Origin: a virus
Length of the DNA stretch: 27,684 bases
Reading direction: 5' to 3' (one strand)
Virus genome (UHGV): UHGV-0027489
A program made the position numbers and the translations under genes. Positions 1,983 through 27,292 of the stretch are shown piece by piece. Below the pieces are notes generated by a model. The model saw nothing but the letters and a program-made list of their open reading frames with translations, ran no database searches and was not told the DNA's origin. Position 1 is the stretch's first letter, and each line of letters opens with the position of its first letter.

Positions 1983-2169
1983 AGTGACCACCGTTTACTG
2001 TGCATAAAAACCCCCTTAGTTGGTGAGTTCATCATACACAATAAACCATATATGGAGTAAATTACCTGATGTCTAGCCACAAAAAACACAAACGCGGCAT
2101 AGAACTGAGTGACTGTGGATGGTTTAGCATTTAAAATGAAATAAATTACGTATAAAACAGGATTGAGTA

Positions 2170-5498: not shown

Positions 5499-5521
5499 TA
5501 TTACCTGCAAAACCACATATG
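5499..5521. promoter_or_regulatory. Conserved 23-bp element TATTACC-N5-AACCACATATG (copy A)
   Basis: Matches 22458-22480 at 18 of 23 positions (only the 5-nt spacer differs); sits in the intergenic region between the tailspike start and the LexA-box gene. Confidence 0.45.
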
Positions 5522-5549: not shown

Positions 5550-5566
5550 ATTACCTTTCAGGTAAT
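5550..5566. promoter_or_regulatory. Operator-like palindrome ATTACCT-TTC-AGGTAAT (copy A)
   Basis: Perfect 7-bp inverted repeat with a 3-bp spacer; a 16-bp identical copy lies at 22521-22536; both sit upstream of plus-strand moron units and ~90-105 bp upstream of minus-strand gene starts. Confidence 0.5.
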
Positions 5567-5641: not shown

Positions 5642-5899
5642 ATGCAGCAGTATCACTATCCACTGGAAGACGGATTTACCGAAAGGATTCACACGCCGGG
5701 AGGCGTCAGGTCACTGGTGGATGGATCGCACTTGATGAAATTACTCCGGGATCTCGATAAAGATGGATTTAATGTCGATGGCCCACTTGCCGAACTGACT
5801 GCACTGATTAACTACGTCACCAGCTCACAGATGTCTATGCAGGATCTGCAAACACATCTAGACTATTGTGCCGAACAATTACGAAAACAAACCACATAA
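5642..5899 (+). CDS. Small SOS-regulated protein of unknown function (85 aa); candidate antirepressor or other SOS-induced moron product
   Basis: ATG 5642 preceded by GGAGAAG RBS at 6-nt spacing; the track's upstream start at 5519 would place the operator elements and LexA box inside the ORF, so I prefer 5642; opposite strand to the structural operon; no family recognised. Confidence 0.5.
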   Translation: MQQYHYPLEDGFTERIHTPGGVRSLVDGSHLMKLLRDLDKDGFNVDGPLAELTALINYVTSSQMSMQDLQTHLDYCAEQLRKQTT

Positions 5900-5921
5900 A
5901 GAAAAGGCCGCGAAAGCGGCC
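5897..5921 (-). terminator. Rho-independent terminator for minus-strand transcripts
   Basis: On the minus strand: GGCCGC-TTTC-GCGGCC stem-loop followed by TTTTCTTTAT; directly downstream of the stop of the 98-aa membrane gene (5931) and overlapping the 3' end of the plus-strand gene. Confidence 0.6.
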
Positions 5922-5922
5922 T

Positions 5923-5934
5923 GTGACATGTCAC
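5923..5934. repeat. Perfect 12-bp palindrome GTGACATGTCAC (copy 1 of 3)
   Basis: Exact 12-mer also at 23510-23521 and 25775-25786; lies between convergent gene ends next to the terminator hairpin. Confidence 0.6.
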
Positions 5935-6227
5935 GTCCCTTTTCTGAATGATAGCCATTCGAAAAATGATGACATTCCACCGCAGACAATAGCAAAGATG
6001 ATCCCACCAAAGAAGAGAAGGCCAGCCTGCCACCACTCCCACCGCCATACATCCACAGCGCCAACCATACCAACAATCGCTCCAACAAATGGAATATAGC
6101 TCACGATGAAAGCAATGGGGGCTGCAATTATCCAGTGCAATCCCCACCATGATTCAAGCCCAGCCATAATTGCTGCCAACTGAAAAAGACCAACGACGAT
6201 ATAAACAATGAATCCTATAGCTTGCAT
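5931..6227 (-). CDS. Small polytopic membrane protein (98 aa), unknown function
   Basis: Very hydrophobic, Trp-rich sequence with 3-4 predicted TM helices; AGGTGA RBS before ATG 6227; last gene before the terminator. Confidence 0.5.
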   Translation of the reverse strand: MQAIGFIVYIVVGLFQLAAIMAGLESWWGLHWIIAAPIAFIVSYIPFVGAIVGMVGAVDVWRWEWWQAGLLFFGGIIFAIVCGGMSSFFEWLSFRKGT

Positions 6228-20241: not shown

Positions 20242-20534
20242 TCCTGTTCACTGGCCTCTTTGGCCATCTTCAAATACTGTTCAGGGCAATGCGCCATAAC
20301 GCGCTGAAACAGTTCCAGCGCCAGATTGCGTTGCCCCTCATTAAATGCCATTGCCATAGCGTCCATCGGTGAGATAGCGGAAAACACACGGCCTTTCTCC
20401 AGCACCGACCAGACAACGCGACGCCCCTGTTCACTGCTCATGACAAAGCGAATGTCATCAATTTCACGCTGTGCCATGTCACGTTGCTTACGGGCGTTTT
20501 CTTCTTTCAGTTGATCATCTTCGTAATCTGTCAT
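20238..20534 (-). CDS. Small head-assembly-region protein (98 aa), unknown function
   Basis: ORF between portal and scaffold, overlapping both by 4 nt (translational coupling). Confidence 0.4.
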   Translation of the reverse strand: MTDYEDDQLKEENARKQRDMAQREIDDIRFVMSSEQGRRVVWSVLEKGRVFSAISPMDAMAMAFNEGQRNLALELFQRVMAHCPEQYLKMAKEASEQE

Positions 20535-22457: not shown

Positions 22458-22480
22458 TATTACCAATTTAACCACATATG
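22458..22480. promoter_or_regulatory. Conserved 23-bp element TATTACC-N5-AACCACATATG (copy B)
   Basis: 18 of 23 identity to 5499-5521; intergenic, between the 68-aa gene start and the tRNA-region promoter. Confidence 0.45.
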
Positions 22481-22499: not shown

Positions 22500-22537
22500 T
22501 TGACATTTAACGCACAAATTATTACCTTTCAGGTAAG
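22500..22537 (+). promoter_or_regulatory. Putative promoter (TTGACA -35) overlapping operator-like palindrome ATTACCTTTCAGGTAA (copy B)
   Basis: Consensus -35 hexamer TTGACA at 22500-22505; the 16-bp palindrome at 22521-22536 is identical to 5550-5565 and overlaps where a -10 would lie. Confidence 0.45.
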
Positions 22538-23133: not shown

Positions 23134-23505
23134 ATGAACGACCAGCAAATCGAAAAAGAAATCGTTGAGAAAGGCAAAACGGCACCGCGCGTTACGCCAG
23201 ACCATATCGAAGGCATTATTGCTCAGGAGGCATATTTCACAGCAGAAGATGGTGCCTTTGGCAAAGCCATAAAAGCGAAACATACTGGCGGAGAGGTAAA
23301 CTACCAGCCGCACGAATCACTTTCTCTGCTGACGTTCTGCGTCCTGGTGCTGCGCAACGGCTTCACCGTCACCGGAGAAAGCGCCTGTGCAAGCCCGGAA
23401 AACTTTGATGCAGAAATTGGTCGGAAGATTGCCCGGCAGAATGCTGTAAACAAAATCTGGATGCTCGAAGGTTACTTGCTGAAGCAGAAGCTAAGCGAGC
23501 AATAA
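23134..23505 (+). CDS. Conserved small phage protein (123 aa), possibly N4 gp49 / Sf6 gp66 family; function unknown
   Basis: AAGGTGAG RBS before the ATG; motif block NGFTVTGESACASPENFDAEIGRKIA...IWMLEGYLL looks domain-like and matches my recollection of the Gp49-like family (unverified); opposite strand to the flanking terminase and portal genes. Confidence 0.5.
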   Translation: MNDQQIEKEIVEKGKTAPRVTPDHIEGIIAQEAYFTAEDGAFGKAIKAKHTGGEVNYQPHESLSLLTFCVLVLRNGFTVTGESACASPENFDAEIGRKIARQNAVNKIWMLEGYLLKQKLSEQ

Positions 23506-23509
23506 CACC

Positions 23510-23521
23510 GTGACATGTCAC
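23510..23521. repeat. Perfect 12-bp palindrome GTGACATGTCAC (copy 2 of 3)
   Basis: Starts 5 nt after the stop of the 123-aa gene, directly before a terminator hairpin; flanks cGTGACATGTCACa identical to copy 3. Confidence 0.6.
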
Positions 23522-23525
23522 AAAC

Positions 23526-23552
23526 AGCCAGCCTATGAGCTGGCTTTGTTTT
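23526..23552 (+). terminator. Intrinsic terminator after the 123-aa gene
   Basis: AGCCAGC-ctatga-GCTGGCT stem-loop followed by TTGTTTTAT. Confidence 0.5.
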
Positions 23553-23595
23553 ATCCTCACCAGAGGATATCAACGACATTATCCCCACCAGCGGA

Positions 23596-25071
23596 TTAAG
23601 CATAGGGATCGTAATCTGTGATGGCCTTGCCTTGCTGGTTCTGCTGACCGGGAATTCGCAGACGCTTCGACACAGGGAACGCAAACGTCAGCAGTAGCGC
23701 ATCGCCTTTACCAGGAGAACGCCCAAGTCGCTCTTTGATATCTTCCTTCGGTTCGATAACGATTTTACCGTCCACTCGAACTTTGTACTCTGCCGCCGAC
23801 AGGTCGTCTGCAGTTTCCTGGTCATCCAGCATGCCGCCCAGCCTCAGCCATGTCTTACATGAGTTGAACATCTCCCCACGCTTGTTGAGCATCTGCGGGT
23901 CAGTAGACGCGCCACCGAACGGAACAAGTTGCCATGTACGACCCCAGCCGTCACCGATTGACTTCAGACCAGTTCCGTAACCGAAGTCGATGAACACTGC
24001 GTCAGCCTGGTACTGGTCTTCAAAGTCAGCGATACGCTTCGCCATAATCAGATCGTCGGTGGTCTTGTTACCAGTCCATAGCACCTTACTGTGCAGCCCC
24101 TGCCGCAGGTATATCACCGCGTCATCAACGCCTGAGTATGCCGGGTCAACGCCGATTATCACCGGAGCATGTGCAACCTGCACAGCGGTGACCACCCGTT
24201 TCATTGCCTCGTCAGTAAGTCCGGTAGGGATAAACTGCAATTCGGATGCATCCGGGAATATGCCGCGCACACGGATTTTAACGAAGTCGCTGTCTTCCCC
24301 GTAGTCATCAACCCATTTCTGCAACTGCTGTTTGTTAGTGCCTTCCACCGTCCGGCTGTCAATCTGCGCAGTTTTCCAGCGGTGTTTATATTTGCGGAAA
24401 CATTCGCGAAAACGCCCGGTGTTACGTGTAGGGTTTCCGAACGCCACCCAGATAATCTCAGTGTCTTCGTCCGTAAGCGCACCCTCAGCAACTTCCCACA
24501 CCAGATCCGCAATGTTCGACGCTTCATCGAATACCACGATGATGCGTTTGCGCTCGTTGTGTAGTCCGGCGAATGCCTCAGTGTTGTGCTCAGACCAGGG
24601 TATTGCGTCAGCCCGCCACCGCTTGTCGTGCCCAGGGTCATTGCTGTACATCGCAGTAGCGGTACAGGTAAACCAGTCTTTCGTGATAGCAAGGTTCGAC
24701 CACTTGATAATTTCCGGCCAGGTCTTCGTTCGTAGCTGGTTGTCGGTGTTGGCGGTCACCACGATCTTACAATCCTCGCAAGTGGACATGCCCCAGTTGA
24801 TCAGCATTGAGATGAATGCGGATTTACCAATACCGTGACCAGAAGCGCGTGCCAGCATAAGCGGCTGATAGCGCGTCTCTGGATTCTGCAGGTGATCACG
24901 TATCTCTCGGAACGCATCAGCCTGCCACTGACGTGGGCCGGTAGCATGTGCCAGTTCAGTCCCCTCTTCCCCCCACGGGAACGCATAGAGGGCATAGCCA
25001 AGCGGATCGTGAGTGAACCCTGCAATATCCTCGATCAACTGCTCTTCAGGAGATAACGCTGTATCTGTCAC
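23596..25071 (-). CDS. Terminase large subunit
   Basis: 491 aa; Walker A-like ASGHGIGKS near the N-terminal ATPase region, acidic nuclease-like C-terminal half; start overlaps the stop of the small-terminase gene by 4 nt; followed by the portal after the moron insert. Confidence 0.8.
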   Translation of the reverse strand: MTDTALSPEEQLIEDIAGFTHDPLGYALYAFPWGEEGTELAHATGPRQWQADAFREIRDHLQNPETRYQPLMLARASGHGIGKSAFISMLINWGMSTCEDCKIVVTANTDNQLRTKTWPEIIKWSNLAITKDWFTCTATAMYSNDPGHDKRWRADAIPWSEHNTEAFAGLHNERKRIIVVFDEASNIADLVWEVAEGALTDEDTEIIWVAFGNPTRNTGRFRECFRKYKHRWKTAQIDSRTVEGTNKQQLQKWVDDYGEDSDFVKIRVRGIFPDASELQFIPTGLTDEAMKRVVTAVQVAHAPVIIGVDPAYSGVDDAVIYLRQGLHSKVLWTGNKTTDDLIMAKRIADFEDQYQADAVFIDFGYGTGLKSIGDGWGRTWQLVPFGGASTDPQMLNKRGEMFNSCKTWLRLGGMLDDQETADDLSAAEYKVRVDGKIVIEPKEDIKERLGRSPGKGDALLLTFAFPVSKRLRIPGQQNQQGKAITDYDPYA

Positions 25072-25664
25072 TGATTACCATCCTGACGTTCTTTGAGTCG
25101 CTTCCTGGCTGCCGCTATGCGATCAGCAATTGTCACATTCACATTAACATCCAGGCGTTCTTTGAATGCGTTGACGTCGACGTGCTTACCAATCAGTTCG
25201 AGGTTCTTCACCTTGTCAGGCCATTTAATTTTTTTGAGGATTGTCTCTATCGAATCCTCGTTCATGTTCATGATGGTCGATGACAGATCAAAGCCACTAA
25301 GCGTAGTGCGCCAGATTTTCGGCCACTCGCGGATTGGCTTAAGGCTCCCATCGTCGTTGAGGATATCAATCACGTCCATCTGGTCGATCTCCACCAGGCG
25401 CATGAGAACGTAATCGGCACTGACGCGCATTCGTTTGTTGCGCTCCTCCATCAACTCGGCAATCCGTTTTTGAATGCGTTCATCGCGCATCATGACACTG
25501 GCTTTAACTGCCGCTGTATTTGGGGAGAATCCTGCGTTAATCGCTGCCTGAGTCTGGTTTTCAGGCGTTTTGATGTATGACTGGCAATAAGCCTCCTGCA
25601 TTGCTGTTAGTGGCTTAAATTGCGTTGATTTGCGTTTATAGGTTTTAGGTTCAGCAGGCATCAT
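25068..25664 (-). CDS. Terminase small subunit
   Basis: Immediately upstream of and overlapping terL; basic helix-rich protein. Start set at ATG-ATG (25664) with GGTGG RBS; the track's longer ORF uses a TTG at 25742, which would add a Thr/Val-rich low-complexity extension. Confidence 0.6.
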   Translation of the reverse strand: MMPAEPKTYKRKSTQFKPLTAMQEAYCQSYIKTPENQTQAAINAGFSPNTAAVKASVMMRDERIQKRIAELMEERNKRMRVSADYVLMRLVEIDQMDVIDILNDDGSLKPIREWPKIWRTTLSGFDLSSTIMNMNEDSIETILKKIKWPDKVKNLELIGKHVDVNAFKERLDVNVNVTIADRIAAARKRLKERQDGNQ

Positions 25665-25774
25665 AACCACCGTGGTAATAGTTACCGTTGTGGTAATAGT
25701 ACCATGCAAAATAAAGCCGCCATAGTTGGCGGCAGTATTCAAAACCCATCAAATTCATCATGCATAATCTACTC

Positions 25775-25786
25775 GTGACATGTCAC
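25775..25786. repeat. Perfect 12-bp palindrome GTGACATGTCAC (copy 3 of 3)
   Basis: At the early/late junction: overlaps the stop codon of the Cys-rich gene and lies 30-110 bp upstream of the small-terminase start. Confidence 0.6.
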
Positions 25787-26130
25787 ACTATTAATTTCGT
25801 TTCATGCCAGCCTTTAGTCACCCAGCATTGCGAGTCACCATTACACGGGCATGAATTAACGGGAACTCTCTCGCCGCACTTACCGCAAAGTTTTCTGCTG
25901 ATCGATTTTATACGCCCGCGCACACGTGCATCATCCTGGCGGATCAGCAGCGCGATGTACTCGGCCATTTCATAGGGATCGCGACCAGGGCGCCGGGCGG
26001 CGCAGTTCCGCGCCAGCATTTCCTGCTCCTGCTTATCCAGCACCAGTTCAATTTTGCGCTCACCGGCGGCGGACTGCCGAGCGCGCTGCGCGGCTTTGCG
26101 TTCTGCGGGGGATTTAGCCACGAATCGCAC
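25783..26130 (-). CDS. Basic Cys-rich small protein (zinc-finger-like C-terminus); candidate transcriptional regulator
   Basis: C-terminal C-x2-C-x8-C-x-C (CGKCGERVPVNSCPC); basic N-terminal region; last early-region gene before the terminase. The 115-aa ORF starts at GTG; internal ATGs would give 78 or 61 aa. Confidence 0.4.
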   Translation of the reverse strand: MRFVAKSPAERKAAQRARQSAAGERKIELVLDKQEQEMLARNCAARRPGRDPYEMAEYIALLIRQDDARVRGRIKSISRKLCGKCGERVPVNSCPCNGDSQCWVTKGWHETKLIV

Positions 26131-26236
26131 TCCACGCCAGATTGATTAATGACTCCCAGGTAATATAAACCCGGATACCAGCAGCCAGGCCGAAACCAAT
26201 CACCATGGCATAAAGCAGAGCGTTGCACTTGTTCAT
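26114..26236 (-). CDS. Small hydrophobic peptide (40 aa), tentative
   Basis: Hand-translated: strong AGGAGG RBS 7 nt before ATG 26236, ATGA overlap with the stop of the upstream gene; one predicted TM segment (MNKCNALLYAMVIGFGLAAGIRVYITW...). Below the track cutoff. Confidence 0.3.
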   Translation of the reverse strand: MNKCNALLYAMVIGFGLAAGIRVYITWESLINLAWSAIRG

Positions 26237-27003
26237 CACTTCACCTCCTGCGGCGGTTCTGGTAGCGGCATCCAGTGAGTTACGTCATCCAAGATATTTC
26301 CTGATAAATACGTGAAAGCTCTATATTTTTTGTAATCAATTGGATTTACAACCCAGTTCCAATATGCGGCCACGATTTCACCTTGACTAAATGCCAGTAA
26401 CATTTTGGTGTCTTCCGGCATTCGCTCACTACAGCTTATCCAACCATCCGGAGTTACCGGAGAGTTGACCTTTTCGTTGGCATCACCAAGATGGTTAACC
26501 ATCCCGAGCTTATCCTCGGGATGGTTCTTACCCTCATGTGTGTGGGAGACATTGGCACCCTGAAGCATGGCTGCGCGGCAGGAGTTCCAGCCTTGAACCT
26601 TAGCTATTGCAACAACTGCATCAGTAAAGAACATTCTCGCGGTATCTGGCTCAGGCATTTCAGCCGGCACCGCTTGCTGCGGTAACTGTGGTGCCTTCAG
26701 TGACTCCAATTCAGCGATGCGCTTCTCTGCTGCTCCCAGCTCATCCAGCAGCGCCAAGACGGTAGCCGGATTGGCTGCGGCGATGAATTCAGCATTGGCC
26801 TGCTGTTCCATTTGGAAATCTTCATCGAAACCGCTTTCAGGATGCGCTCCTTCAATTCTGCAAATGGGGATATATCCAGCAGCCTCGCGATGAATTAGCG
26901 CATCATCACCATCAAATCGGCCCTCTCCATATTCGAGCGACCACTCGCCACACGTTGCTTTTTCTGCCTTAGCACGCAGTGCCTGATAGTCAATCTTGTT
27001 CAC
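26236..27003 (-). CDS. Ea22-like / DUF551-like lambdoid early-region protein
   Basis: N-terminal NKIDYQALRAKAEKATCGEW...LLDELGAAEKRIAELE resembles the Ead/Ea22 family and the Trp-rich C-terminus (HWMPLPEPPQ) resembles DUF551, both from memory; start set at GTG 27003 (GGGAGA RBS, 14-nt overlap with the upstream gene) rather than the track's ATG 27084. Confidence 0.5.
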   Translation of the reverse strand: MNKIDYQALRAKAEKATCGEWSLEYGEGRFDGDDALIHREAAGYIPICRIEGAHPESGFDEDFQMEQQANAEFIAAANPATVLALLDELGAAEKRIAELESLKAPQLPQQAVPAEMPEPDTARMFFTDAVVAIAKVQGWNSCRAAMLQGANVSHTHEGKNHPEDKLGMVNHLGDANEKVNSPVTPDGWISCSERMPEDTKMLLAFSQGEIVAAYWNWVVNPIDYKKYRAFTYLSGNILDDVTHWMPLPEPPQEVK

Positions 27004-27292
27004 TGGTTGTCTCCCTTGCTGGGCTTTCGAATGTATCAAACTCAAACAACTTAACCACGTCATCAAACAGGACATAATCGCCATCAGAATCTTCAGTCAT
27101 GTCAGCGCCACAATCCTGACCGAACGAGTCACAACCATCCATATCAAGCTCGTATCGCTTGAGTTTTGCGATATTTGATAAATTCAGCGCCAGTACAGCC
27201 AGGTCATAAACCTCTTCGGCAGTGACATCGCTGTTCAGTCCCATTTCATGTCGATATATGATTTTTTCTACTCGTTGTTTTGTGATTGTCAT
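26990..27292 (-). CDS. Acidic small early-region protein (100 aa), unknown function
   Basis: ORF with ATGA overlap to the upstream gene; highly acidic C-terminal half. Confidence 0.4.
   Translation of the reverse strand: MTITKQRVEKIIYRHEMGLNSDVTAEEVYDLAVLALNLSNIAKLKRYELDMDGCDSFGQDCGADMTEDSDGDYVLFDDVVKLFEFDTFESPARETTSEQD

Follow-up and report, generated by a model that had tools for sequence, protein, structure and literature searches.

A small basic protein rich in cysteines is encoded at the very end of the early region of an epsilon15-like phage, and the stop codon of its gene lies inside a 12-bp palindrome that recurs elsewhere in the same genome. What kind of protein is this, does it read the palindrome, and what would it do there? 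The locus comes from the virus genome UHGV-0027489, of which the whole stretch of 27,684 nt was analysed (hereafter, the window). The first-pass annotation had proposed a late-gene activator of the Ogr/Delta type, with the triply repeated palindrome as its candidate binding site. Our analysis separates these two ideas, which fare very differently.

Genomic setting of the gene and the palindrome

This region of the window matches the epsilon15/phiV10-like (Uetakevirus-type) phages of E. coli. The order of genes on the minus strand is an Ead/Ea22-DUF551 protein, a 41-aa membrane ORF, the target ORF, terS, terL and the structural genes, which confirms the earlier placement of the target as the last gene before terS. 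The features on which the argument turns are the following.

25783..26121, minus strand: target gene, encoding a 112-aa basic protein, homologue of epsilon15 gp49 and phiV10 p55 (the longest ORF would begin at 26130)
25068..25661, minus strand: terS (small terminase), Terminase_2 match at E=1e-29, with the start taken at the second ATG as in TL-2011b and epsilon15
23596..25071, minus strand: terL, directly following terS in gene order
25775..25786, no strand: palindrome copy 1, GTGACATGTCAC, holding the TGA stop of the target gene (25785..25783)
23510..23521, no strand: palindrome copy 2, in the interval between the converging 3' ends of terL (minus strand) and ORF 23134..23505 (plus strand)
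5923..5934, no strand: palindrome copy 3, holding the TGA (5933..5931) of ORF 5931..6227 (minus strand), at the end of the structural operon

In its longest reading, the target ORF covers 25783..26130 on the minus strand and yields 115 aa from a GTG. However, the real start is probably the GTG at 26121, because the homologues are almost all 112 aa long and a GGAG Shine-Dalgarno sequence stands 8 nt before this codon. The same GTG overlaps the stop of the 41-aa ORF (GTGGCTAA), which suggests translational coupling between the two genes. That small ORF (26114..26239, minus strand) encodes a hydrophobic product and is matched over its full length by phrog_5525; upstream of it, ORF 26236-27084 (minus strand) joins an Ead/Ea22-like N-terminal domain and a C-terminal DUF551 domain in a single frame, and its listed start is probably too far upstream. 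The counterparts of the target, phiV10 p55 and epsilon15 gp49, are in both phages the last gene of the early-right operon, and their records label them by similarity only, as ‘transcriptional regulator’ and ‘similar to N15 gp46’, respectively. The description of the product as basic is also borne out (pI 9.6; 23 Lys and Arg against 14 Asp and Glu).

The repetition of the palindrome is beyond what chance would give: three exact copies of GTGACATGTCAC, at 5923, 23510 and 25775, stand in the 27,684 nt, against about 0.025 expected from base composition and 0 in 100 dinucleotide-preserving shuffles. As had been noted, the stop codon of the target lies within copy 1. Copy 3 embraces the TGA of a different gene in the same register, namely that of a 98-aa product matching phrog_3075. 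Copies 2 and 3 have counterparts at 2262 and 19493 in phiV10 and at 2142 and 19517 in epsilon15, and the same three palindrome positions are found in epsilon15, phiV10 and the window despite their differing flanks. Two further candidates were set aside. A one-mismatch copy, GTGCCATGTCAC, at 20471-20482, just past the portal gene, corresponds to GTGACATGGCAC in many relatives; both it and these counterparts lie inside a coding region, and probably reflect coding conservation. The phiV10 record begins inside the palindrome, but this is no sign of a genome end, as the record starts after the stop codon of the last gene.

A basic arm, a ribbon-helix-helix core and a Cys4 module

The target belongs to a family of 728 close homologues, mostly of 112 aa, which form 149 clusters at 50% identity and are almost all unnamed. 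The profile phrog_536 aligns with residues 5-114 over positions 3-114 of 115 (E=1.2e-53), and its label, ‘transcriptional regulator’, is an annotation and not a function shown by test. Pfam and NCBIfam scans of the target protein returned no match, nor did a PDB sequence search with this single protein, and the sole Foldseek match against viral models was a fragment of the same family. The AF2 single-chain model (pLDDT 91.7) predicts the succession of a beta-strand and two helices that characterizes the ribbon-helix-helix (RHH; CopG/Arc/MetJ) superfamily, followed by a cysteine cluster.

25900..26064, minus strand: predicted RHH core, residues ~20-74, with an extended segment (19-29) and then helices 30-42 and 52-74
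25825..25887, minus strand: Cys4 cluster C79-x2-C82-x8-C91-x7-C99, residues 79-99, presumed zinc site

N-terminal to the core, residues 5-18 make up a conserved basic arm or helix, in which R13 is invariant and R8 nearly so. The residues of the predicted beta-strand are not strongly conserved, for all that the half-site of the palindrome is invariant, and the conserved residues sit instead in this N-terminal arm. A few members of the family give weak Pfam matches to RHH_5, RHH_1 or RepB-RCR_reg, and hhalign comparison of the RHH core with IncFII CopB gave a probability of 33%, which is below significance.

The cysteine motif first described, C-x2-C-x8-C-x-C, is literally present in the target, whose full pattern in the 112-aa numbering is C79-x2-C82-x8-C91-x-C93-x5-C99; it does not, however, coincide with what the family conserves. 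All 53 diverse members examined (53/53) keep C-x2-C-x6..10-C-x7..9-C, with C79, C82, C91 and C99 as the conserved cysteines and the columns of C79, C82 and C99 fully invariant, whereas C93, the second cysteine of the ‘CPC’, is an extra one that the family does not keep. Judged by this conservation, the Cys4 module presumably binds zinc. Its similarity to YbiI/TraR chains (profile E 0.03-0.05; hhalign probability 39%) is a lead only. The predicted architecture is thus a basic arm, an RHH domain and a Cys4 module, and not an Ogr/Delta finger, and such a protein is very probably a nucleic-acid-binding regulator.

The gene and the palindrome travel together

In 77 of 80 close IMG/VR loci the stop codon lies within the palindrome, exactly as it does here, and about 60% of the close relatives also have the copy behind terL. 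The sequences downstream of the gene in these relatives are of unrelated mosaic types, which diverge immediately past ...TGTGACATGTCACGA; the palindrome is therefore the last element of the gene module. The association extends to distant homologues (34-68% identical) in N15-like, P2-like, lambdoid, ZF40 and Vibrio-type phages, where GTGAC-NN-GTCAC again lies at or over the stop. It covers the TGA in N15 gp46 and Klebsiella KpLi5 (GTGACTGGTCAC, in the same register), in a Yersinia P2-like phage (GTGACGCGTCAC), in the Vibrio-type loci L090, L092 and L096 (GTGACAGGTCAC) and in the lambdoid loci L143-L157; it stands 2 nt past the TAA in Pectobacterium ZF40, 1-3 nt past the TAG in L091 and L137, and within the 3' coding end in L093. 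In the Aeromonas phage 14AhydR10PP, a variant, GTGACCGGACAC, is located upstream of the family gene. Exact copies number 1-3 per genome, against 0.025-0.046 expected, with exactly three in N15. The two extra copies of N15 (L097), at 28550-28561 and 33237-33248, are both conserved in KpLi5; one is upstream of icd/ant (anti-immunity) in a regulatory region and one is inside repA.

The half-sites GTGAC/GTCAC are invariant, while the central NN is variable even inside single genomes, a combination that fits recognition by a dimeric DNA-binding protein. Further, one copy lies within the codons for a peptide CDMSR, and its three wobble positions are fixed while the neighbouring ones vary, which argues for constraint at the level of DNA. 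A palindromic site with invariant half-sites is also consistent with an RHH dimer, whose two-stranded antiparallel sheet would read a symmetric operator. Some loci count against a strict pairing: the L109 group, the Yersinia chromosomal loci and Vibrio K308 are without a site at their own stop, sites elsewhere being kept. Nevertheless, since the gene travels with the palindrome through many temperate phages and across unrelated phage types, the target protein very probably binds it, and this part of the first-pass proposal gains considerably from the co-occurrence.

Where terminators accompany the sites, the order is fixed

All three copies in the window are neighbours of terminator-like hairpins, and the first is separated from terS by a further pair of motifs.

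25708..25733, minus strand: terminator-like hairpin GCCGCCAACTATGGCGGC + TTTATTTTG, 40 nt downstream of copy 1 and before terS
23526..23555, plus strand: terminator-like hairpin AGCCAGCCTATGAGCTGGCT + TTGTTTTATC, 4 nt past copy 2; bidirectional
5895..5922, minus strand: terminator-like hairpin AGGCCGCTTTCGCGGCCT + TTTCTTTATG, directly past copy 3; annotated as a terminator in phiV10 and epsilon15
25663..25697, no strand: two ATTACC-N5-GGTAAT-like sites between the terminator and terS, with one mismatch each; the epsilon15 ‘repressor’ motif

The hairpin next to copy 1 is conserved in phiV10 and epsilon15, with an annotated terminator there; that next to copy 2 has a weaker T-tract on the minus strand, and phiV10 annotates a terminator at 2238-2257; copy 3, read on the minus strand, is followed by 1 nt and then by GGCCGCTTTCGCGGCC and a T-run. 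The association is general: a hairpin with a T-run lies within 60 nt of the site in 52 of 144 unique contexts (36%), which are not phylogenetically independent, as opposed to 3.45% of random positions. Its order is always from palindrome to terminator (29 one-way, 22 bidirectional and 0 reversed only), with spacings in two classes, 0-8 nt and 14-25 nt, and the hairpin sequences themselves are unrelated from group to group.

The remaining surroundings are diverse. In N15, KpLi5 and the type B loci, the ribosome-binding site of the next gene comes directly behind the palindrome. In the type C loci (L058, L062, L082, L087 and L114-L174), a umuD-like ORF (MGFPSPA..) separates the family gene from the packaging genes and has the look of an SOS-controlled moron. 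The promoter that drives it, near consensus and with a LexA box (TACTGTTTAAATATACAGTA), comes directly behind the palindrome, which stops 6 nt short of the -35 hexamer. In N15 the distance from the end of the palindrome to the -35 hexamer of a downstream promoter-like hit is ~25 nt. In Aeromonas 14AhydR10PP, 10/12 sigma-70 promoter-like hits precede both variant sites by 14-16 nt, one of these promoters being the family gene's own, with the sites at ~+8 to +20. Yet other copies are inside coding regions, namely those of N15 repA and of a PL-operon gene. A weak promoter-like hit, GTGACA-18-CATGAT, overlaps copy 1 in the window; the idea that the palindrome is generally a promoter, with GTGACA as its -35 element, was rejected, as loci of the other downstream types do not keep the -10-like element.

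The late units have motifs of their own, their upstream regions sharing ATTACC-N5-GGTAAT and CATATGTGGTTT. The former, which the epsilon15 record labels as repressor-binding, is found at PL and PR and also closely precedes the terS, portal, tailspike and lysis units; the window has it at 5550-5566, 22521-22537, 25663-25679 and 25681-25697, and there are many copies in L003 and L004. This placement suggests that each late unit is under direct control of the prophage repressor. The 12-mer CATATGTGGTTT is found, with at most one mismatch, at 5510-5521, 22469-22480 and 2043-2054 (minus strand), three copies against 0.15 expected. Every copy precedes a late-strand unit and has an ATTACC site close by; epsilon15 and phiV10 show the two motifs together as well, and the 12-mer may be a late-promoter or leader element.

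Ogr and Q proteins coexist with the family

The likeness of the target to P2 Ogr and P4 Delta is that of a small cysteine-containing phage protein proposed for late-gene regulation. At the level of the family, none of the 53 members gave an Ogr_Delta hit even at E<=1, and the spacing of Ogr_Delta (PF04606), C-x2-C-x22-C-x4-C, differs from the x2, x8 and x7 found here. Alignment of the family with P2 Ogr by hhalign gave a probability of 0.3%; the Ogr sequence used did pick out a homologue in a P2-like phage (E=2e-26). That phage, the Yersinia one mentioned above, carries an Ogr homologue after gpD in addition to a family member after gpA, and its single palindrome is at the stop of the family gene, with none at the late promoter regions. 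The Ogr homologue in question is unannotated (vB_YenM_31.17, L009, 32431-32643, plus strand; tblastn E=2e-26), the record calling instead an opposite-strand ORF, gp44 (32350-32628), over it.

Similarly, N15, KpLi5 and the lambdoid group each have a Q protein together with a family member. Gene order in the lambdoid group runs from O-like and DnaB-like genes through a methyltransferase gene to the family gene, the palindrome, the terminator and ninB, with Q further on. The presence of Ogr or Q besides it speaks against the family member being the late activator of these phages. Ogr sites are partial dyads upstream of promoters, and P2 ogr is not known to sit before the terminase genes. The palindromes of the window, in contrast, are placed at 3' ends before terminators and not upstream of each late promoter. 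The coexistence with Ogr and Q, along with the other motifs upstream of the late units, argues that the palindromes are not late-promoter elements.

A possible regulator of transcription-unit boundaries

We tentatively favour, as a reading that may well be right but that we would not yet call probable, a sequence-specific boundary regulator, which acts as a roadblock or insulator to reinforce termination and may autoregulate. One RHH dimer would probably bind the 12-bp GTGAC-NN-GTCAC; gene and site would move as a cassette, in which the first site usually overlaps the gene's own stop. Of the three sites, one would stand at the 3' end of the early-right operon, ahead of terS, one at that of the terS-terL unit together with the convergent gene, and one at that of the structural operon. 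With each site immediately upstream of an intrinsic terminator, the bound protein could set how much transcription crosses the boundary, most likely as a roadblock or insulator that strengthens termination. This sign of the effect is favoured by the usual role of RHH proteins, which are nearly always repressors, by the operator-like placement in Aeromonas, by the sites inside and between genes, and by the convergent junctions at copies 2 and 3.

The closest precedents in fold are small RHH repressors such as IncFII CopB (RepA2), CopG, P22 Arc and Mnt, and omega. The present family differs from them in adding a C-terminal Cys4 module, and its site is over a stop codon beside terminators whereas theirs are on the promoter. 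Autoregulation could resemble that by LacI at O3, because RNA polymerase would stall before the gene's own stop codon is transcribed. LacI bound at O3 is reported to act as a roadblock at the 3' end of lacI, leading to non-stop mRNA and tmRNA tagging. In both cases the operator lies over the 3' end of the gene for its own regulator, and binding would truncate its mRNA; the protein families are unrelated, and the likeness is one of mechanistic analogy only.

Several observations speak against a boundary regulator of this kind. Where a terminator already works, a roadblock in front of it looks redundant. Stopping transcription at the lambdoid position would deprive ninB and Q of it, and anti-termination would account better for a site placed there. 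Moreover, the positions of the sites relative to promoters are heterogeneous, as seen in Aeromonas, the type C loci and N15.

Regulator genes immediately upstream of terS also occur in Gram-positive temperate phages, where RinA, ArpU and LtrC bind and activate the terS promoter (PMC3152322). These proteins have no homology to the present family; here a terminator stands behind the site, and the family gene is often away from terS. Searches of the literature on the family, the palindrome, N15 gp46 and epsilon15 late regulation found nothing relevant. The ‘gp46’ reported in telomere phage NAR688 lysogens (PMC12042878) was not equated with N15 gp46 and was set aside.

Alternative readings

The opposite sign of regulation has to be weighed first. 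The protein, as the last early product, could bind the palindrome at the end of its own gene and work as a late-gene switch, allowing RNA polymerase to run through the terminator into terS and terL and across the other boundaries as well, which we regard as somewhat unlikely. The same modest likelihood attaches to its phrasing as a switch for read-through in the manner of lambda Q or N, recruited by a DNA site beside each terminator. The target is the last gene before terS, and the order of palindrome, terminator and terS suits such a role, as does the constant position of the palindrome upstream of the terminator in the direction of transcription, which is expected of a factor that meets polymerase before termination. 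In the lambdoid group, the cassette and its terminator occupy the position of lambda tR2, upstream of ninB and Q, and the weak GTGACA-18-CATGAT hit over the site recalls Q-binding elements. The parallel with lambda Q, qut, pR' and tR' is one of layout, with a regulator gene followed by a cis site and a terminator before the late genes; Q proteins contain zinc as well. However, the family shows no similarity to the Q, N or RfaH families and gives no Q-family hit, in sequence or fold it does not resemble Q, and the palindrome comes with no conserved promoter or sigma-dependent pause element, the -10-like element over it not being kept in other downstream types. The relatives N15, KpLi5 and those of the lambdoid group have a separate Q besides the family member. 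At copy 2, the direction that meets the palindrome first would give only antisense terL RNA. Many sites are without a terminator (N15, Aeromonas and the copies in coding regions), the late units come with separate operator and promoter-like motifs, and the repressor habit of RHH proteins likewise points away from read-through. Were read-through nonetheless the function, which we think a minority prospect, the earlier idea of a late regulator would be right in spirit, by a different mechanism.

A wider formulation, which we rate as rather unlikely, is that of a horizontally mobile ‘terminator-control cassette’, in which a factor bound at its DNA site just ahead of intrinsic terminators decides between termination and read-through and would serve as the early-to-late switch in epsilon15/phiV10-like phages. 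That this would be a previously unrecognised mechanism, distinct from those of Q, N, RfaH and Ogr, we hold with equally little confidence.

A role in DNA transactions other than transcription, be it as a replication-fork barrier, an accessory site for copy number or packaging, or a recombination site, is less probable still. It could account for the conserved copies of N15 and KpLi5 within repA and beside the anti-immunity region, for the two lambdoid copies that flank replication genes, for the weak similarity to plasmid copy-control RHH proteins, and for the occurrence of the family gene after an integrase-like gene in two Vibrio phages. But the roughly ten-fold, directional association with terminators points to transcription; a palindrome would not produce the polar fork arrest typical of Ter sites; and no consistent link to ori, pac/cos or att is seen.

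It is improbable, too, that the palindrome serves another binder, such as a host protein or the prophage repressor, or acts as an RNA element, with the cysteine-rich protein doing something unrelated, for example at RNA polymerase through a TraR/DksA-like finger. The weak YbiI and TraR profile matches hint at the latter, as does the resemblance of a helix followed by C-x2-C-G-x-x-(I/L)-P...G...C to TraR/DksA, and the palindrome can form a small RNA hairpin of 4-5 bp. Against another binder, the site tracks the gene across Vibrio, Aeromonas, Yersinia, E. coli and phages with different repressors, and in this phage group the operators of repressor type have another motif. Against an RNA element, a stem of fixed sequence around two free central nucleotides is what one expects of DNA recognition and not of an RNA hairpin. 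An RNA switch was likewise rejected, as the most that the palindrome forms in RNA folds is a weak hairpin of its own, with no interplay or competition with the terminator. As for the DksA/TraR C4 zinc finger (PF01258; C-x2-C-x17-C-x2-C), none of the 53 members has a zf-dskA_traR Pfam hit, the second C-x2-C pair is missing and the spacing is 8+7 as opposed to 17; the family helix before the Cys4 module cannot be a secondary-channel probe, because it belongs to the RHH core.

Finally, an Ogr/Delta-type activator, with the palindromes as upstream activating sites of late promoters at which the protein contacts RNA polymerase, has in its favour the gene position, the presence of cysteines and the PHROG label, and is already largely refuted and barely credible in view of the different fold and cysteine spacing, the coexistence with Ogr and Q, and the location of the sites at the 3' ends of transcription units.

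Implications for the family and its phages

The RHH class of regulators is well known, while the addition of a Cys4 module, the cassette of gene and operator at a stop codon and the link to terminators appear undescribed. If the pairing of protein and palindrome is real, it would give a protein family that has so far merely been annotated a DNA site, a small regulon of 1-3 sites per genome and a likely role. It would also define a new architecture, RHH with Cys4, whose operator lies over the gene's own stop codon beside a terminator. The family has been detected in hundreds of enterobacterial, Vibrio and Aeromonas prophages, and its members include epsilon15 gp49, phiV10 p55 and N15 gp46, from phages used as models and reporters. 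The strict order from palindrome to terminator provides a simple, falsifiable rule, and the pairing, if real, would offer a testable handle on how early and late transcription are kept separate in epsilon15-like phages.
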